From an uncultured virus (IMG/VR IMGVR_UViG_3300028840_007129) (Duplodnaviria; Heunggongvirae; Uroviricota; Caudoviricetes), in the IMG/VR virus record IMGVR_UViG_3300028840_007129: a stretch of 62,025 nt of DNA; one strand, written 5' to 3'. Shown in pieces: positions 34,407 to 49,209 of the stretch (position 1 is the first letter of the stretch; the number at the start of each line of letters is the position of its first letter). The position numbers and the translations under genes are program-made. The notes beneath the pieces were generated by a model. It was not told the DNA's origin. It saw only the letters and a list, made by a program, of their open reading frames with translations, and made no database searches.

Positions 34407-34483
34407 TGGTGGGTCGTGAGGGACTTGAACCCCCGACTAACGGATTATGAGTCCGACACTCTAACCAACTGAGTTAACGACCC
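34407..34483 (-). tRNA. trnI: tRNA-Ile2(CAT) (elongator Met not excluded)
   Basis: TCGGA-CT CAT AA-TCCGT; other CAT tRNAs are in cluster 2 and the cluster-1 leader uses ATA twice. Confidence 0.85.
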
Positions 34484-35015: not shown

Positions 35016-35089
35016 TGGGACCGGCCTGATTCGAACAGGCGACCCCTACCATGTCAAGGTAGTGCTCTAACCATCTGAGCTACGATCCC
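35016..35089 (-). tRNA. trnV: tRNA-Val(GAC)
   Basis: CTACC-TT GAC AT-GGTAG. Confidence 0.95.
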
Positions 35090-35303
35090 GGTCATTTTCT
35101 CTTTTTTCCTGAACGGTAATCTCCTTCAATTTCTTTCTGGGATTCCCACACATGGTACAGGAGCACATTTTGGTCGTATTCCTGTGCAGCCTAATCCATC
35201 GAGGAATCTCCTCCTTTGATAAAAGGGGATCACCAAAAGCACGCTTTCTCCCCTTGTACTCGCTTTTGAGAAAACGATCCCTTTTGTCCTTCGGATGAGA
35301 CAT
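35067..35303 (-). CDS. small basic Cys-motif protein
   Basis: CSCTMCGNPRKK; start MSHPK. Confidence 0.7.
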   Translation of the reverse strand: MSHPKDKRDRFLKSEYKGRKRAFGDPLLSKEEIPRWIRLHRNTTKMCSCTMCGNPRKKLKEITVQEKRENDRDRSSDG

Positions 35304-35319
35304 GAGTAACACCCCCTGT

Positions 35320-35337
35320 TTAGAGTATTGTACTCAT
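35320..35337 (-). promoter_or_regulatory. uORF MSTIL* within a start-occluding hairpin
   Basis: AAAGGAGGGAGG RBS; GACATGAGTA/TACTCATGTC 10-bp stem. Confidence 0.6.
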
Positions 35338-35360
35338 GTCCTCCCTCCTTTCGGATTTGG

Positions 35361-35437
35361 TGGCACCCCTGCCAGGACTTGAACCCGGACTCTCCTGGTC
35401 CGTAGCCAGACGCTTTATCCAGTTAAGCTACAGGGGC
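35361..35437 (-). tRNA. trnR: tRNA-Arg(ACG)
   Basis: TCTGG-CT ACG GA-CCAGG. Confidence 0.95.
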
Positions 35438-35473
35438 GTATAACTCATAGGAGGCCATCAAGCCCCTCAAAAA

Positions 35474-35548
35474 TGGTACACCCAGAAGGACTCGAACCTT
35501 CAACCCATCGGTTAAGAGCCGATTGCTCTACCATTGAGCCATGGGTGC
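35474..35548 (-). tRNA. trnK: tRNA-Lys(CTT)
   Basis: ATCGG-CT CTT AA-CCGAT. Confidence 0.95.
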
Positions 35549-35553
35549 ATATC

Positions 35554-35628
35554 TGGTACCCCCGCCAGGATTTGAACCTGGGACCCACGGTTTAAAAGAC
35601 CGCTGCGCTACCACTGCGCTACGAGGGC
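35554..35628 (-). tRNA. trnK: tRNA-Lys(TTT)
   Basis: GCGGT-CT TTT AA-ACCGT. Confidence 0.95.
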
Positions 35629-35630
35629 AT

Positions 35631-35667
35631 AAATAAAAAGACCCGCCTGATTTCTCGGGCGGGTCTT
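35631..35667 (-). terminator. attenuator 1 intrinsic terminator
   Basis: AGACCCGCC-C-GA-GAAA-TC-A-GGCGGGTCT followed by TTTTATTT. Confidence 0.9.
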
Positions 35668-35691
35668 CTGTTTCAGAATTTAAACTCTAAT

Positions 35692-35778
35692 TCAGACAGA
35701 CCCCGCCCGGTCACGCTTAACCCAGCGATCTATACGGTCACGTTTGACCCGGCGTACTATCTGAATTACAGTGCTCAT
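35692..35778 (-). CDS. leader peptide 1 (28 aa, leaderless mRNA)
   Basis: MSTVIQIVRRVKRDRIDRWVKRDRAGSV; ATG 7 nt after the -10 box; codons match cluster-1 tRNAs. Confidence 0.85.
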   Translation of the reverse strand: MSTVIQIVRRVKRDRIDRWVKRDRAGSV

Positions 35779-35785
35779 ACTGACA

Positions 35786-35814
35786 ATAATACCTTATTCT
35801 GGGCTTAAAGTCAA
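35786..35814 (-). promoter_or_regulatory. sigma70 promoter of tRNA cluster 1
   Basis: TTGACT-17-TATTAT. Confidence 0.85.
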
Positions 35815-35849
35815 TACCTAAAATGAAAAATTTTTCTGAAACTTTAAAG

Positions 35850-37043
35850 TCAGGTAATCGATATGATATTCGGGTTTGACCCGGATATGCTTAGTGTTTT
35901 CGTGGACTCAGATGAAGCTAATGGAGTTTCTCTTGGACAACTGTAGAATCCACATACATACGTAATAGGATGTTTGCTGGCAGAAACATAGGAAACTGCG
36001 TCCGGTACCTCGTCAGAGAAGGCCAATATAGTATCCGAGTTCCAATCAGCCTGACTGAAGATATCCTTGCTCCATGACGTTCTCAGATTCGCAATGACAA
36101 CGGAAGTAATGATACCAGCATCCACAAGATCCTTATAAGATTGTGCCTGCTGGACATCTCCTACCATCATCATCACATCAACTCCTGTGCCACACTTCTC
36201 CCGATACTTTTTTATAAGCTCCCTCATAAAGGTTGTCTTGCCGATGTTTCTGAGATTACCGCAGTCAATGTTCAAAATACCGTTTGACCGGCTATTATCC
36301 CATTGGGACTTTAATAGCTCAAGACCCATGGCGTTTTTGAAACTCTTGAAATCTAGGTCACTCGGCTTGATGCACGTGATATCGAAAGCACTAATACAAG
36401 GACCCATGACACCCTCTCCCATTCTTCTGGGTTTGAAGGCATCTCTTTCGAATGCGGCAATGTCGTTAAGAAATGTGCGACAGGTGAAAGAGATGCTGTC
36501 ATCGTTATTAGCTGGGTCCTTTGAGACAAGGGGCTCTAATTTATTGAAAGCTGAATGTTCCCTTATAAGGCCATCACCAGTTTGAAAGGTCCAAAATTTG
36601 TAGAGCATTGCATATGGGGCCACTTTCTTATCAGGATTGCGATAGAAGTAATTAGTCTCTTTGTCATAGAGACAGTCAGCTAGTAACTTGAAGGCCACCT
36701 GAATATGGGTTATTGCCGGTGATAGACATATCTCGCGTATCATGGTATCGAAACGAAGTTCTGCGTTCCATTCGAAGACAGCCTGCCTTACAGAATAACG
36801 TATCTGGTCCAGATACATTGTAGGGATGGCGAAAAGGAAGTCCTTTACCCATTCATTGTACGTTTTTGGAAGCGTACCGGGGAATTCTCCAAAAGTGTAG
36901 GATTTCATTTTCCTATCATCTACAGAGCTCCAGTCGAGCTTGTAGATAGATGTAGACCCAGACTCTTCAGATCCAGGCTTGAAGCTAACGTCTTCGAGAT
37001 GAATGAGTTGGGGGAAGAATAGGGGACGAGAGAAGCGTAACAT
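35850..37043 (-). CDS. hypothetical protein with degenerate P-loop
   Basis: GNLRNIGKTT ... FSDE; AGGAGG RBS. Confidence 0.7.
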   Translation of the reverse strand: MLRFSRPLFFPQLIHLEDVSFKPGSEESGSTSIYKLDWSSVDDRKMKSYTFGEFPGTLPKTYNEWVKDFLFAIPTMYLDQIRYSVRQAVFEWNAELRFDTMIREICLSPAITHIQVAFKLLADCLYDKETNYFYRNPDKKVAPYAMLYKFWTFQTGDGLIREHSAFNKLEPLVSKDPANNDDSISFTCRTFLNDIAAFERDAFKPRRMGEGVMGPCISAFDITCIKPSDLDFKSFKNAMGLELLKSQWDNSRSNGILNIDCGNLRNIGKTTFMRELIKKYREKCGTGVDVMMMVGDVQQAQSYKDLVDAGIITSVVIANLRTSWSKDIFSQADWNSDTILAFSDEVPDAVSYVSASKHPITYVCGFYSCPRETPLASSESTKTLSISGSNPNIISIT

Positions 37044-37165
37044 GGCACACCTCCTGTGCTTGTACCGGGTAAGACAAAATACCGCAGACCTTCTGCGGTT
37101 ACCACAAGCGCAGGAATTATTAATAAATTATTGATATTTTCGTAAGAGTAACAAAGGAGGCCGCC

Positions 37166-37315
37166 ATGGCTGCAACAACAACCGATGCTCAGATGGGTCA
37201 GACTAAGGGTTCTATATCTCCTACGATAGGAGTATATAAGGAGACGTATACGTGGGTTCTTGATACGAAAACGAATGTCCCCGTGGCCGTGAGGAAGTCG
37301 GTCACTATAGGGTAA
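37166..37315 (+). CDS. 49-aa hypothetical protein (not in ORF track)
   Basis: AAGGAGG RBS; MAATTTDAQMGQ... Confidence 0.6.
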   Translation: MAATTTDAQMGQTKGSISPTIGVYKETYTWVLDTKTNVPVAVRKSVTIG

Positions 37316-37466
37316 CACCGTTTTCTAGGGCTCTTCTATACGTGTTTATGGCCCTTCTGTAGTCTTCTGAAGAGACCCTTCTCTTCTTAGAATCCTTTAA
37401 TCTGTCTCTGAACCGTTCTGCGTCTTTTCCACGTAGTATAGGCGTGTCTTTTATTGGAAGGGCCAT
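37305..37466 (-). CDS. 53-aa basic protein (not in ORF track)
   Basis: GGAG RBS; MALPIKDTPILRGKDAERFR... Confidence 0.6.
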   Translation of the reverse strand: MALPIKDTPILRGKDAERFRDRLKDSKKRRVSSEDYRRAINTYRRALENGVTL

Positions 37467-37495
37467 AGGTCATCTCCAAATAAAAAAGGGGCCAA

Positions 37496-38074
37496 TCAGG
37501 CCCCTGCTACGTATGGCTTCAGGATTTTATCGACGTAGAAACGGTGAGATATCTTATTCGGGTTGTAGGCGAACCTGAATACAGCGTAATCACCCTTCCT
37601 TACGGTCGGTACTGCTGGCTTCCGAATGAGTTCAAGACCAACCTCCTCCGGTAGCTTGTTACGCTTGACCACGACATTGTGATGCCTGCAACAGCATACG
37701 CAGTTCTCATAAGATGTTGCACCACCCTTCTCTCTGGGGGTGACGTGGTCAATCGTCCTTTCGTTCTCCGTACAAGTATAGGCGAACCTTTTACCGTCTT
37801 TGGTATAGTGCCAGTACTGACACTGGTTCTTGTCCCTGTTGTAGACCCCGTGGTCACTGTAAGGGACCCTGTCAGACTTGATACGATATGAAACGAAGTG
37901 GACAAGCCTTACGACGAGAGGAATCTTGAATCTTACTTCGAAGCTGCGGACCTCTTCGTCGTCCTTGGATACGAGTACCTCAATCTTATCCTTCACAAGC
38001 CACTTGATGGCTTTCTTGAGGTCTACTTCGGTCCAGTACTCGTAATTGCGGTTAAGAACGACTACAGAATACAT
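37496..38074 (-). CDS. HNH endonuclease (McrA-like)
   Basis: VVVLN, RDKNQCQY, TIDHVTPREKGG, NCVCCC. Confidence 0.88.
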   Translation of the reverse strand: MYSVVVLNRNYEYWTEVDLKKAIKWLVKDKIEVLVSKDDEEVRSFEVRFKIPLVVRLVHFVSYRIKSDRVPYSDHGVYNRDKNQCQYWHYTKDGKRFAYTCTENERTIDHVTPREKGGATSYENCVCCCRHHNVVVKRNKLPEEVGLELIRKPAVPTVRKGDYAVFRFAYNPNKISHRFYVDKILKPYVAGA

Positions 38075-38105
38075 AGCGGGGACTAATCCTTTCTGCGAAT
38101 AAGTG

Positions 38106-38147
38106 TTAACAGAGCGTATCGTATTCTTCGTAATATTTTATTGTCAT
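38106..38147 (-). promoter_or_regulatory. uORF MTIKYYEEYDTLC* pairing with the HNH start region
   Basis: AAAGGAG RBS; ATTAC..AGAATAC complementary to GTATTCT-GTAGT at the HNH start. Confidence 0.55.
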
Positions 38148-38178
38148 TACGACTCCTTTCTTCTGCTGATAGTTCATA

Positions 38179-38251
38179 TGCCCCTAGCACGATTCGAACG
38201 TGCGACACCCGGTTTAGGAAACCAGTACTCTATCCCCTGAGCTATAGGGGC
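38179..38251 (-). tRNA. trnR: tRNA-Arg(CCT)
   Basis: CTGGT-TT CCT AA-ACCGG. Confidence 0.93.
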
Positions 38252-39021: not shown

Positions 39022-39063
39022 AGGGTAACTCCTGACCTAGAATATAATGTTTTATGCTGTAAG

Positions 39064-39240: not shown

Positions 39241-39324
39241 TGGGAGTGTAAGGATTCGAACCTTCCTAGTCGTAAGACAACGGATTTACAGTCCGCCCCA
39301 GCTCACCGCCTCTGGCGCACTCCC
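39241..39324 (-). tRNA. trnY: tRNA-Tyr(GTA)
   Basis: GCGGA-CT GTA AA-TCCGT; long variable arm (bacterial type). Confidence 0.92.
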
Positions 39325-39332
39325 TTAATGAC

Positions 39333-39410
39333 TGGTACCGGAGGGCGGCCTTGAACCGCCGACTGACATACCTTATGAGGGTACCGCACTACCAACTGTG
39401 CTACTCCGGT
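39333..39410 (-). tRNA. trnM: tRNA-Met(CAT), probably elongator
   Basis: GTACC-CT CAT AA-GGTAT. Confidence 0.85.
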
Positions 39411-39415
39411 AGAAA

Positions 39416-39490
39416 TGGTTGCGGGGGCCGGACTCGAACCGGCGACCTTCGGGTTATGAGCCCGAAAAGCTACCACTGCTACACCCCGCT
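39416..39490 (-). tRNA. trnfM: initiator tRNA-fMet(CAT)
   Basis: three consecutive G-C pairs in anticodon stem; 1:72 mismatch. Confidence 0.9.
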
Positions 39491-40162: not shown

Positions 40163-40420
40163 TTATTTTCTTCTCGCTCGCCACTCTGGCATAGGCTCGT
40201 TTACAATTTGTTCTCCGCCATAGTACCATATAAGTGGTTTAGAGTCCCAATGATACTTCCAGTCCCTTATATTCCAAGGGTCATAGTATTTACGATAAGA
40301 CTTTCCATTTGGTACATTGTCAGAATTTCTGACCCTACGATTAGCCTCACGCTTCTTAAACTTGGTAGACTTTTTTCCGTAACCGTCTAAGAACCAGGGC
40401 TCTCTGTAAGACCTTGACAT
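40163..40420 (-). CDS. small basic protein
   Basis: MSRSYR...KREANRRVR...NGKSYRKYYDPWNIRDW; AAGGAG RBS. Confidence 0.75.
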   Translation of the reverse strand: MSRSYREPWFLDGYGKKSTKFKKREANRRVRNSDNVPNGKSYRKYYDPWNIRDWKYHWDSKPLIWYYGGEQIVNEPMPEWRARRK

Positions 40421-42210: not shown

Positions 42211-42543
42211 ATGAACGACTTAGGTATGAAAACCGCTACAAAAGCCCCCGGAGAAAAGCTCATCAGCGGTGATGGCTACTATATGATAAAGCCCCCTAAG
42301 GGCTATAAGGGCAAGACTTACATAGATGGCCGGTACATTTATGAGCACCGGTATATTATGGAGAAAAAGCTTGGAAGGCCCCTAAAATATAATGAGAACA
42401 TAGATCACATAAATGGTAATAAATTGGACAACAGACCCTCGAATCTAAGGCTCCTCTCAAGGGCCAAGCACACTCAACATACAAAGCCCGCCAAAAAGGC
42501 CAGAAGTATCGTAGAGGCCTACCTCAAACTACAAGCCTCTTAG
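42211..42543 (+). CDS. HNH endonuclease
   Basis: YEHRYIME...HINGNKLDNRPSNL. Confidence 0.88.
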   Translation: MNDLGMKTATKAPGEKLISGDGYYMIKPPKGYKGKTYIDGRYIYEHRYIMEKKLGRPLKYNENIDHINGNKLDNRPSNLRLLSRAKHTQHTKPAKKARSIVEAYLKLQAS

Positions 42544-45726: not shown

Positions 45727-46500
45727 CTAAAATTCGAACTTCTGACCTTTACTAACAAAGCCAGAAAAACCGTCAGCTCTTGCATCGGGAAGGTCTTTGA
45801 GGGTGTTGTAATGATAGAGCCATATTTTCTTTTTCAACTCTGGTGCCAGGGTCTTTAAGTCCTCATAATGCGCGTGGACCCCGCTCTGATGTTGTGATGT
45901 CTCACAGTCATGGAAAACGACATCAGCCCCTTTTATGAAGTCTTTCAGCTGAGTCGGGGCAAATTGGGTATCTGAAGTTATAAAGATTGATGTCCCACTG
46001 ATAGGATCCTTAAATTTCAATCCGAAAGATTTCACAAAAGTAGCATCAGCAATAACGTGTATAGTTTGAACAGGTTTGAATACGCACCCATCAAATTCGA
46101 ATGAAGCATTGTTGGGAACCCCGACCGTATCAAAGAAGGTCTCCAGAGTGGCATCCTTAAGCTGAATGGAATCCAAGCCACCCCGCAAGGATTGATTCCA
46201 AAGGTCTTTGATTAACATGGAATTTGCAAACAACTTTGGCCTGAATCCCGTGTTTACGGTCTTGCAGAAGTAATTCAGAAAGGCCATGTATTCCAGGCCG
46301 CCGATGTGGTCCGCATGAAGATGAGAGACATAGATAGCATCTATGTCTAAAGCTGAAAGGCCCTGCTCTTTCAAGGACCATCTAATATCTCCCCCACAAT
46401 CAAAGAGCATTTTCTTTCCGGAAGGGGTCTGAATAAGAGCGTTCGATTGGAAATTGTCCATACAGAATGCGGATCCGCTACCAAGAAAAGTTAAAATCAT
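45727..46500 (-). CDS. metallo-beta-lactamase-fold hydrolase (RNase Z/BN-like)
   Basis: FLGSGSAF, DCG, SHLHADHIGG, TSDT, HDCE, LYHY. Confidence 0.85.
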   Translation of the reverse strand: MILTFLGSGSAFCMDNFQSNALIQTPSGKKMLFDCGGDIRWSLKEQGLSALDIDAIYVSHLHADHIGGLEYMAFLNYFCKTVNTGFRPKLFANSMLIKDLWNQSLRGGLDSIQLKDATLETFFDTVGVPNNASFEFDGCVFKPVQTIHVIADATFVKSFGLKFKDPISGTSIFITSDTQFAPTQLKDFIKGADVVFHDCETSQHQSGVHAHYEDLKTLAPELKKKIWLYHYNTLKDLPDARADGFSGFVSKGQKFEF

Positions 46501-47009
46501 TCTTCTTCTCCTATCAATAGGTCGATAGCTTTTTTAACGTCTTCCTTACGTATACCCTTCCTGCTATCCGTTTTAACAAGTCTATCCATATGCGGGGGTA
46601 TATCGTAAGAGTCATCATCGAGAACAATATAGCTATCGATCTCGAATCCATTCTTCTTGGCGTTATCTAACCAGAAGTCTATCTCTGAGCCTCGACCGAA
46701 AGGCTTACCATCTTTTTTATCCTCTTCCTTCTCATTTATTGAAAAAGATGGCGTTTTGCCTATGATGCTGGATCCATCAAATGGTTCCGGATTAGCCACA
46801 TAACAACCCCAACGGTCGCCCCCACTGCAGAAAAGCTCTTTGAGATTGTTAACCGTCAGGCCCTTCCTCCAGGTGCTCGTTACTACGATTTTAGCACCTG
46901 TACGTTCCAGGATGGTGTTAAGACGTCTCATACAGATAGGGTCAAAATAGCAGAATCTTGTCCTGTCCGTACAGACGACACCATCGATATCAAGGAAGAT
47001 AATTTTCAT
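46497..47009 (-). CDS. HAD-family phosphatase (RNA-repair-associated type)
   Basis: IFLDIDGV, VTSTWR, RGSEI, YIVLDD. Confidence 0.82.
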   Translation of the reverse strand: MKIIFLDIDGVVCTDRTRFCYFDPICMRRLNTILERTGAKIVVTSTWRKGLTVNNLKELFCSGGDRWGCYVANPEPFDGSSIIGKTPSFSINEKEEDKKDGKPFGRGSEIDFWLDNAKKNGFEIDSYIVLDDDSYDIPPHMDRLVKTDSRKGIRKEDVKKAIDLLIGEEE

Positions 47010-47373: not shown

Positions 47374-47410
47374 GTATCAAATGATAGGTACTTTATCAGC
47401 AGAAATAAAG

Positions 47411-47423
47411 ATGTCAAAGAACA
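47411..47423 (-). promoter_or_regulatory. boxA-like site directly after attenuator 3
   Basis: TGTTCTTTGACAT. Confidence 0.6.
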
Positions 47424-47588: not shown

Positions 47589-47617
47589 AGTATACACCTT
47601 TTCAGAACTAAAATCAA
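47589..47617 (-). promoter_or_regulatory. sigma70 promoter of tRNA cluster 3
   Basis: TTGATT-17-TATACT. Confidence 0.8.
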
Positions 47618-49209
47618 GGGGTATTATCAATTAAGTTATAAGCTATTATCCTCAAATTAGATGCAAGAGTCTTTTTACCGCCAAATTGCTTGAGTAATTC
47701 TTTCTTTGCCCTTGATTTCGTTAATCTTTTACCTTTCTCAGCATAGTCGTCTGCAATATCAGTCAGAAGTTTTTTTGCTTTCCCTACATCCGGTCCTGAC
47801 TTCAGGCCTAAAAGTTTCATTATTTCTTTTCCATCGAGTACGGGCTCAGCTTTGATTGGTAATTTTCTGGCTTCCTCTATTTTTTTTCGGAGATCCGGGA
47901 TATTTTCTGAACTAGGTATCCTACCTAATTCATCTGCACGGGAGAGGTCTAAGACGGCATCTATTGTCTCCTCGCCGACATCCCGGACGAACTTTCTTAG
48001 AGTTTTCACTGAAGGCTTATCCCCAATACGGTGAGCCCTCATATGATATTTAACCATCTTTTTTACTTTATCGATGGTTTTGTTATCGAATTTGAGCCTC
48101 TTCAGAATAGCTGCAGCAATTTCAGAACCAACGTCGTCATGCCCATAGAAAGTAATCTTATCCTCTAAGAGATCTTGAGTTTTAGGTTTTCCAATATCAT
48201 GGAGTAGCGCGGCTAACTGAGACTCTATGCCCGGTTTCGTGTTATCGAGGACCATCAGGGTGTGCCTATAAACATCCCCCTCTGAATGGTGTTTCTCTGG
48301 TTGTTTTACCCCCTTGAGGGCTTCAACCTCAGGAAGCACATGTTTGAGGAGACCCGTAGCGCTCATGATTTTGACAGCTTTTTTCAGCTTACCCAATTTC
48401 ATTATTTTTTCGAGTTCTTCTTTTATTCTCTCAGAAGATATGATCTCTATTCGGTCAGCGTTCCTTTTAACCGTTTTGAGAACAGAGCGTGGTATATCCC
48501 AGCCATACTTGGCCTGAAACCTGATGAGGCGCAGCATCCGAAGGGGGTCATCATTAAATATTTTATCCAGGGATACGCCAGGATGACCCCTGAGAATACC
48601 TTTAGCGATGTCTTCCTTACTTACACCGGTAGCATCTTCGATTTCTCCCGTGGTCATATCCTTCAAAAGCATATTTACTGTGAAGTCCCTACGTTCTATA
48701 TCCTCCTTGAGGTCCGCTGGTAAGGTCTGTCTCTGTCTTGAAGATGGGTCAGGAAATACCTCTTTCATTGTATCAGCAAACTCGATGACAGCGCCACGCG
48801 TATGGTACTTTTCACTCTTGTAGGTAATGTCCTTTTTGAAGGTTATCTGCCAAATGGGGTATCCTTTTCCAAGCTGTCTGGGCTTAGATACCGGGTTATT
48901 CGAGGTTCCAGAGAAGAGCTCTTTTACCTTATCCCATAGAGTTTTTTTATTAAAAGTATCATAGATAAAATTAGTGACCTTCTCGGCCCCGTCTCTCATA
49001 TTCACTACTATGTCCAAATCTTTGGACTCAATAGATGGATCATTCTTAATAAGGCTGAGGTACTCATCTCTTACATACCCGCCTACAGCCTTTAGTTTAC
49101 CGGCAAACTCTGTTCCTGGCAGGAAAGATTTTAGGAATCTCTCTACTTCTTTTTCAGCACTTGTAGATATCAGATGCAAGTATGCCTCTACTATTCTTTG
49201 GGCTCTCAT
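47614..49209 (-). CDS. cca: CCA-adding tRNA nucleotidyltransferase with HD domain
   Basis: VGGYVRD, KDLDI, RRDFTVN, DDPLRMLR, ERIKEEL, LLHDIGK; adjacent to tRNA array. Confidence 0.9.
   Translation of the reverse strand: MRAQRIVEAYLHLISTSAEKEVERFLKSFLPGTEFAGKLKAVGGYVRDEYLSLIKNDPSIESKDLDIVVNMRDGAEKVTNFIYDTFNKKTLWDKVKELFSGTSNNPVSKPRQLGKGYPIWQITFKKDITYKSEKYHTRGAVIEFADTMKEVFPDPSSRQRQTLPADLKEDIERRDFTVNMLLKDMTTGEIEDATGVSKEDIAKGILRGHPGVSLDKIFNDDPLRMLRLIRFQAKYGWDIPRSVLKTVKRNADRIEIISSERIKEELEKIMKLGKLKKAVKIMSATGLLKHVLPEVEALKGVKQPEKHHSEGDVYRHTLMVLDNTKPGIESQLAALLHDIGKPKTQDLLEDKITFYGHDDVGSEIAAAILKRLKFDNKTIDKVKKMVKYHMRAHRIGDKPSVKTLRKFVRDVGEETIDAVLDLSRADELGRIPSSENIPDLRKKIEEARKLPIKAEPVLDGKEIMKLLGLKSGPDVGKAKKLLTDIADDYAEKGKRLTKSRAKKELLKQFGGKKTLASNLRIIAYNLIDNTP

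Follow-up and report, generated by a model that had tools for sequence, protein, structure and literature searches.

The leaders of the enterobacterial ilvGMEDA (Ile/Leu/Val) and thr (thrL; Thr/Ile) operons, like trpL, hisL, leuL and pheL, combine a promoter, an open reading frame (ORF) with regulatory codons, the alternative RNA pairings 1:2, 2:3 and 3:4, and a terminator, and thereby control biosynthetic enzymes. Their stop codon is placed such that a ribosome finishing the peptide masks segment 2, and in the multivalent ilvGMEDA and thr leaders several codons are sensed within one leader. Attenuators of this kind respond to the amount of transfer RNA (tRNA), not just to the amino acid, as seen for hisR mutants of tRNA-His, which derepress the his operon. 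The pheM attenuator of E. coli pheST places phenylalanyl-tRNA synthetase under leader-peptide attenuation and senses the state of one tRNA, and T-box riboswitches are also attenuators that read specific tRNAs and control translation-related genes, although they bind the uncharged tRNA through a specifier loop and the T-box sequence, with no translation involved. Here we analyse an element, leader A, at 35814-35631 on the minus strand of a 62,025-nucleotide stretch of uncultured Caudoviricetes DNA (IMG/VR record IMGVR_UViG_3300028840_007129; hereafter the window). Judged from its sequence, leader A is most probably a ribosome-mediated leader-peptide transcription attenuator that controls an operon of nine phage tRNA genes.

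Leader A has the same succession of parts as the enterobacterial leaders, a stop codon in the equivalent position relative to segment 2, and several sensed codons within one leader. It differs from them in being phage-borne and apparently leaderless. More generally, the phage leaders described below control tRNA genes rather than biosynthetic enzymes, and their codons correspond to isoacceptors, with up to 16 tRNA species each represented in one leader. As in pheM, a gene of the translation machinery would come under leader-peptide control, but whereas the product of pheST is a synthetase for one amino acid, the product of leader A would be the sensed tRNA itself, creating a direct feedback loop. 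The presence of an ORF distinguishes leader A from a T-box, for which there was no match among the 32 Rfam matches listed at E up to 10. The Rfam models of known amino-acid leaders score leader A below their gathering thresholds (in bits, 23.2 vs 50 for Leu_leader, 21 vs 55 for Phe_leader, 16.1 vs 55 for Thr_leader and 13.8 vs 41 for Trp_leader). In every sequence-level respect that can be tested, leader A would qualify as a member of the multivalent amino-acid-operon leader class. The open full-text literature (subscription-only papers were outside the scope of the search) yielded no account in which tRNA genes or phage tRNA clusters are controlled by a leader peptide or an attenuator.

Codons of leader A and the tRNAs behind it

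The initial annotation, made from the letters alone, had read this element as an attenuator, and all testable sequence-level features of that interpretation are present: a promoter, an ORF, alternative structures, a U-tract and then tRNAs. Unless stated otherwise, features of the window lie on the minus strand. Promoter A, of the sigma-70 type, is located directly upstream (35814-35786), with TTGACT at 35814-35809, a 17-nucleotide (nt) spacer and TATTAT at 35791-35786; it scores 10 of 12 matches and aligns with the promoter of a second leader in the window, leader B. The leader ORF (MSTVIQIVRRVKRDRIDRWVKRDRAGSV) comprises 28 codons and a TGA at 35694-35692, spanning 35778-35692 in total. Its ATG at 35778 lies 7 nt past the TATTAT -10 box, and no Shine-Dalgarno sequence is found upstream of it, which agrees with the arrangement that had been annotated. 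Since the 7-nt gap fits ordinary sigma-70 spacing, we infer a leaderless start, with the transcript beginning at the A of the ATG; in the minimum-free-energy fold, nt 1-6 of this RNA, the AUG end, are unpaired.

The genes that would be controlled, block A, follow downstream in the same orientation. They are nine tRNA genes at 35628-34324, identified by ARAGORN and Rfam, in the order Lys-ttt, Lys-ctt, Arg-acg, Val-gac, Arg-ccg, Asp-gtc, Trp-cca, 'Met'-cat and Val-tac, and the first of these, tRNA-Lys(ttt), begins at 35628, only 3 nt past the T-run of the terminator. ARAGORN reports 36 tRNA genes in the window, all on the minus strand between 34324 and 47373, of which 34, including all nine of block A, have an Rfam tRNA match at gathering score (the remaining two are Ser-cga at 39063 and Tyr-gta at 39241). 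Together with leaders B and C, leader A splits all 36 into three blocks.

To each tRNA we assigned codons by standard wobble pairing (C/U for G34, G for C34, A/G for U34, and U/C/A for A34, taken as inosine), taking the lone CAT tRNA of block A as Ile2, whereby the nine tRNAs read 14 codons (set A). Codons 7-24 of the leader (35760-35707) are exactly those listed in the initial annotation, and its claim of 18 consecutive codons matched to nine tRNAs holds, in that 18 of 18 fall within set A and nine of nine tRNAs are represented if the CAT tRNA is Ile2. Set-A codons constitute 28.9% of the codons in 43 long ORFs of the window, and codons 7-24 form the sole run of at least eight of them in all six frames. 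A scan of 6163 ten-codon segments, located at most 1.5 kilobases (kb) upstream of any tRNA and scored against the next eight tRNAs, gave scores of 9 or 10 out of 10 only within leader ORF A. Over the whole ORF, 20 of the 28 codons belong to the set of its own block, compared to 4 and 3 for the sets of the other two blocks.

The match extends to synonymous codon choice. For Arg, CGN is used all seven times, though AGR makes up 54% of the Arg codons in the window and the tRNAs reading AGR are located in block B; for Ile, ATA, which accounts for 44% of Ile codons in the window, is used both times. When synonymous codons were resampled for the given peptide, the observed match had P = 0.00075, and match combined with full coverage P = 0.00038. 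The core of the run is a tandem duplication of a 27-nt unit of nine codons (35760-35735 and 35733-35708, 81% identity over 26 nt). Its copies differ at five places, four of which alter the tRNA that is read (GTA to GAT, CGG to TGG, AAA to AAG and CGT to CGG), and every codon changed between them is still within set A.

Full coverage depends on the identity of the tRNA at 34407-34483, one of three CAT tRNAs in the phage. The other two lie at 39416, with the marks of an initiator (A1xA72 and a GGG/CCC anticodon stem), and at 39333, where the tRNA is elongator-like. The block A gene has the same GGTTAGA D-loop as the Ile-gat tRNA of the phage, and its D-arm and anticodon arm recur in the lone CAT tRNA in block 1 of a related genome, G005, where the leader upstream holds three ATA codons. 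It is probably an Ile2 tRNA, with a lysidine-modified CAU anticodon. If it were instead a Met tRNA, coverage would be eight of nine plus the start codon, and the run would be broken at the two ATA codons.

Alternative structures and the proposed switch

The transcript of leader A can adopt three structures: a long hairpin 1:2 (35772-35684, RNA nt 7-95; -43.0 kcal/mol), an antiterminator 2:3 (35709-35656, RNA nt 70-123; -30.8 kcal/mol) and an intrinsic terminator 3:4 (35669-35631; -22.8 kcal/mol), these energies being taken separately for mutually exclusive structures. The terminator consists of a GC-rich stem at 35669-35636 and TTTTTATTT at 35639-35631. As a whole, the 149-nt leader folds with -65.8 kcal/mol (z = -7.03, none of 200 shuffles as stable), and its minimum-free-energy fold is the long 1:2 hairpin followed by the terminator, so that both the 1:2 stems and the 3:4 terminator proposed earlier are recovered. 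The 2:3 pairing proposed alongside them likewise stands: its 8-nt arms CGGGCGGG/CCCGCCCG are 100% complementary and extend to a 15-base-pair antiterminator around a small hairpin. The 5' arm of the antiterminator, CGGGCGGGGUCUGUCUG, overlaps codons 24-29 of the leader, stop codon included.

The effect of the ribosome position was modelled on nascent transcripts reaching to the terminator loop, of which only the portion downstream of the ribosome was folded, with an assumed footprint of 13 nt from the first base of the A site. With the A site on codons 1-20, the 5' arm of the terminator is paired upstream with segment 2 with a probability of 0.84-0.99. Capture is less probable at codons 21 (0.73) and 22 (0.62) and drops to 0.17-0.26 for codons 23-26 as well as for codons 28-29 (the last sense codon and the stop); codon 27 has a value of 0.45. 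The model therefore predicts that stalling in most of the matched run promotes read-through and that arrival at the stop codon promotes termination. The last two to four matched codons (21/22-24; AAG/CGT GAC CGG) overlap segment 2, and a stall there would cover the antiterminator; in the model, they probably serve the structure rather than the sensing. For CGT, GAC and CGG, retention at the end of the run for structural reasons seems probable because the earlier part of the run already holds these codons. The AAG at codon 21 is the only AAG codon.

These features lead us to propose the following mechanism, of which the transcription start, the translation of the leader and the response to tRNA limitation are all deduced from the letters. 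Transcription would start at or next to the ATG at 35778, and a ribosome would translate the 28-codon leader while RNA polymerase adds a further 60 nt. Given a plentiful supply of each of the nine species (Lys x2, Arg-CGN x2, Val x2, Asp, Trp and Ile-AUA), the ribosome would reach the UGA and cover segment 2, whereupon the terminator 3:4 could form and transcription would stop 3 nt before tRNA-Lys. If any one of them is scarce, the ribosome would stall within about codons 7-20 and hold hairpin 1:2 open; the freed segment 2 would then pair with segment 3 (-30.8 vs -22.8 kcal/mol for the terminator), and the polymerase would proceed into the tRNA genes. The new tRNAs would relieve the stall, which would amount to negative feedback on tRNA supply.

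Leaders B and C, related phages and genomic setting

The window contains two further leaders with this architecture. Leader B, a paralogous attenuator at 41442-41207, consists of a promoter (41442-41414), an AGGAG motif, an ORF at 41385-41275 (MRSVTPRSMHLRSSHADLSLSLCSYFIMLSTAGDPS) and a terminator at 41250-41217. It lies upstream of 17 tRNAs (41168-38178; Phe, four Leu, four Ser, Cys, His, two Met, Tyr, Ile-gat, Arg-tct and Arg-cct), and its ORF contains a cognate codon for 16 of the 16 anticodon species in this block. Attenuator C, at 47617-47421, has a promoter (47617-47589), the Shine-Dalgarno sequence GAGG, an ORF at 47565-47485 (MKTKNSLTSVLNNAATEANGTEGLYL) and a terminator at 47457-47431, and precedes 10 tRNAs (47373-42038; Asn, two Glu, three Thr, Ala and three Gly), of which it covers nine of 10 species, Gly-ccc being absent. 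Both leaders follow their own block, with 24 of 36 codons matched to its own set for leader B (vs 4 and 5 for the other sets) and 13 of 26 for leader C (vs 3 and 8). Pooled over A, B and C, 34 of 35 own-block species are covered and 25 of 70 other-block species (Fisher test, 1.9e-10, with cells that are not independent). In nascent folds, the antiterminator is available through codons 27-28 of 37 in leader B and through codons 23-24 of 27 in leader C.

Leaders A and B can be aligned with 73% column identity, where promoter and terminator are shared and the coding core has been replaced; even the terminator loops are nearly identical. A pattern search of IMG/VR for this common loop returned 58 matches, none of them a terminator before a tRNA, and was set aside as reflecting chance. 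About 10 nt past the terminator of leader C we observed TTGACA/16/TAAAGT with an upstream TG (47390-47417), and a TTGACA motif also occurs just after the terminators of leaders 1 and 3 of the related genome G005 (L076). It may be a second, unattenuated promoter for basal tRNA expression, which would weaken the control exerted by leader C.

Related genomes were found in IMG/VR through the CCA-adding enzyme and a metallo-beta-lactamase (MBL) fold protein encoded in the window, with protein identities of 51-67% (37% for the MBL-fold protein of G006). We located tRNAs in ten of these records and analysed the tRNA regions of eight. Terminator-type leaders are present in three of them, G001 (one leader), G005 (five) and G011 (one), whose CCA-adding enzyme or MBL-fold protein is 55-67% identical to that of the window. 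The G001 leader (L071:9425-9508; MNKLYSYFSCSSLWSLSGEHREGFIAL) precedes tRNAs for Ser, Leu, Trp, Phe, Cys and Tyr and covers 10 of 11 species; with a Trp-tRNA in its block, it includes Trp. In G005, MINATVRIAEEGREGRIPT, the leader with three ATA codons, stands before Glu x2, the lone CAT, Arg-tct, Gly x3 and Arg-cct (7 of 8 species), MFSLKAKRVVSKRRVTPSGVV before Lys x2, Val x2, Arg-ccg and Arg-acg (6 of 6), MFLFVQNPNPNQQPRNKSPLGFGRTL before Asn, Pro x3 and Gln x2 (6 of 6), MRTTIGISIIFSAIDFDSMDIAM before Phe, Asp, Met x2, Ile and Ser (5 of 5), and the fifth, whose core is CRLSYLHL, before Cys, His, Leu and Tyr tRNAs. The G011 leader (L108:1834-1908; MKTSLSYLYLVSCLFNSNFRRGMS) precedes tRNAs for Phe, Leu, Ser, Val, Asn, Cys and Tyr.

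In sequence, the relatives' leaders are unrelated to A, B and C; what they have in common is the match to the local tRNAs and the architecture. That codons follow the local tRNA content at blocks B and C and again at seven leaders of relatives supports interpreting leader A as an attenuator. In all 10 terminator-type leaders (three in the window, seven in relatives) the antiterminator is lost only as the ribosome nears the stop codon, the terminator arms of the G011 leader and of the fifth G005 leader having been set by hand for folding. Two of the relatives' leaders have a short gap similar to that of leader A, the ATG following TATAGT by 6 nt in G011 and TATATT by 9 nt in leader 1 of G005, and the remaining seven of the ten have a 5' untranslated region of about 18-52 nt with a purine-rich, Shine-Dalgarno-like stretch, as read by eye. 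A systematic scan of small ORFs at 16 loci (ATG starts, 12-60 codons, compared with the next 10 tRNAs, one mismatch allowed in a run) found a matched run of at least eight codons in 8 of the 17 ORFs that are followed by a terminator and a tRNA, vs 6 of the 780 others (Fisher test, 1.8e-11). Three of these six lie in G010 (L107:3556-3615, L106:15033-15116 and L107:803-922); one example, MYQQRQQREQERERRQQRR, precedes Glu, Gln and Arg tRNAs. Overall, codon-matched leaders occur in 5 of the 9 tRNA-rich genomes examined. One further candidate, L102:18152, is borderline, and another, L072:6024, was rejected, being the start of a long ORF. We also noted a CTA-anticodon tRNA, of the amber suppressor type, in G001 and G005, and in G001 a tmRNA as well (L071:5701-5775, L072:8869-9272; L076:3562-3638), neither of which ARAGORN found in the window.

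The genes of the window, which include a CCA-adding enzyme, a HAD 'Swiss-army-knife' RNA-repair domain, an Apyc1-like MBL-fold protein, an HNH endonuclease and a NAPRTase, point to a very large uncultured phage. No close relative was found among 50,697 deposited phage records, and the nearest relatives detected are IMG/VR contigs of 150-470 kb. Among four DNA sequencing runs that were compared, run X2 contains the identical strain, with 0 differences across 35044-38223, and runs X4 and X6 contain relatives at roughly 85-90% identity. Compared with genome contigs, the CCA-adding enzyme gave a single, irrelevant match at 31% identity. The 397-residue ORF adjoining leader A has no relatives among viral contigs; it occurs at two metagenome loci only, which are 100% identical at this ORF and thus uninformative for covariation. 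Inside or beside block C lie genes that serve tRNA maintenance, those for the CCA-adding enzyme (47614-49209), the RNA-repair domain HAD_SAK_2 (46497-47009) and the Apyc1-like protein (45727-46500). The latter two are downstream of leader C and would share a transcript with the tRNAs of its block. Small ORFs lie between the tRNAs of block A (35312-35067 and 34827-34648 in the ORF list), and two such ORFs in the tRNA region encode very basic products: one of 81 residues in block A (35067-35312), with no relative in IMG/VR, and one of 85 residues in block B (40163-40420). A metallophosphoesterase is seemingly split into two ORFs about 430 nt apart (43889-43470 and 43036-42524), the second of which matches only the C-terminal half of the Pfam profile; an oppositely oriented ORF of 110 residues (42211-42543) lies nearby, and Rfam reports no intron family.

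Competing explanations and significance

Several observations, given in this and the next two paragraphs, weigh against leader A being a tRNA-sensing attenuator. The CAT tRNA at 34407-34483 has the acceptor stem and body of a tRNA-Lys, and its best BLAST matches, in E. coli genomes and many phages, are annotated as tRNA-Lys, with tRNA-Met annotations also returned. The timing of the switch as derived from nascent folds depends on the assumed 13-nt footprint. When no ribosome is placed on the truncated transcript, the conformer with 2:3 is slightly more stable than that with 1:2 (-45.5 vs -43.0 kcal/mol), so that low basal read-through would rely on 1:2 forming first or on a ribosome reaching the stop codon. 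The codon-matched ORFs of G010 reach almost to the first tRNA, and neither a terminator hairpin nor a U-tract is visible there; these ORFs may be read out in another way, for instance by processing or by a Rho-type mechanism. Finally, G006, G007, G008 and G009 contain no convincing leader within the scope of the small-ORF scan (ATG starts only, 12-60 codons, next 10 tRNAs).

A further such point is that the synonymous signal is weak in leader B (coverage P = 0.03) and absent in leader C, the match being mostly at the level of the amino acid in the former and entirely so in the latter. A stall caused by lack of the amino acid would give read-through as well, and the same anatomy would fit a real leader-peptide attenuator that reports general translation capacity or amino-acid starvation and not the supply of these particular tRNAs, so that tRNA transcription would be coupled to the load or starvation of the ribosomes. 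We consider this unlikely: extra tRNA would be no help against amino-acid starvation, and the preference in leader A for CGN over AGR (7 of 7) and for ATA over ATT/ATC (2 of 2) separates isoacceptors, not amino acids. Moreover, each leader fits its own block and not the others, and leader content tracks block content across genomes.

The remaining points concern translation and folding. With no Shine-Dalgarno sequence before the ATG, translation of leader A would depend on leaderless initiation in the host of the phage. Because the core of the run is a duplicated nine-codon unit, its 18 matched codons are not independent, and the raw value of 0.289^18 overstates their significance; the chance of a nine-codon set-A run at this particular place is about 1.4e-3. 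Equilibrium folds keep the terminator of leader A wherever the ribosome is placed (probability 0.85-0.97). With a masked ribosome footprint, such folds permit pairs that enclose the ribosome and were therefore discarded as uninformative; as the terminator wins at equilibrium, any switch must be kinetic, as in known attenuators. The missing Shine-Dalgarno sequence, the tandem duplication that forms the stem and the equilibrium preference for the terminator would all be expected if ORF A were untranslated and the element a leaky terminator, a processing signal or a factor-controlled element, its codon match a by-product of a duplicated GC-rich stem. Such a by-product is hard to reconcile with ten leaders in four genomes that have unrelated sequences and yet each carry codons of their own downstream tRNAs, with a stop codon that is always found at the 5' arm of the antiterminator, and with the Shine-Dalgarno-like stretches in the 5' untranslated regions of seven of the ten, and we regard this explanation as very unlikely. 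That ORF A encodes a functional small basic peptide whose position before tRNAs is incidental is highly improbable since, even if an Arg/Lys-rich peptide of 28 residues could bind nucleic acid and further small ORFs occur among the tRNAs, the ten leader peptides have no sequence or composition in common and share only the local-tRNA match and the terminator switch.

Returning to attenuation by a tRNA-reading leader peptide, one could speculate that these leaders constitute a modular sensor of tRNA supply in large phages, a generalization that we advance with some reserve as quite possible: each block would be preceded by a 'test gene' with approximately one codon per isoacceptor, and would be switched on only if decoding is slow. 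Slow decoding could in turn be caused by a host poor in tRNAs, by decay of the tRNA pool during infection, or by a tRNA-cutting defence nuclease. With such a sensor, one phage would be able to tune its tRNA output to the host, or the tRNA-targeting defence, that it meets.

If the attenuator interpretation is true, leader-peptide attenuation would, to our knowledge, be described here for tRNA genes for the first time, and it would be a case in which the textbook logic of the trp operon is reused as direct feedback on tRNA supply and one leader reads up to 16 isoacceptors. At present, the role of phage tRNAs is framed by ideas on codon usage, host-tRNA decay and anti-defence, and phage tRNAs are described as countering tRNA-cutting defences (for example, PMC11464382 and PMC11555353). 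Regulated blocks would offer an explanation, open to testing, of when phages switch on their tRNA sets and for what reason. The leaders would also represent compact natural sensors of single-tRNA availability, with possible use as reporters. Their recurrence across phage genomes of 150-470 kb suggests a family-wide strategy rather than a curiosity.

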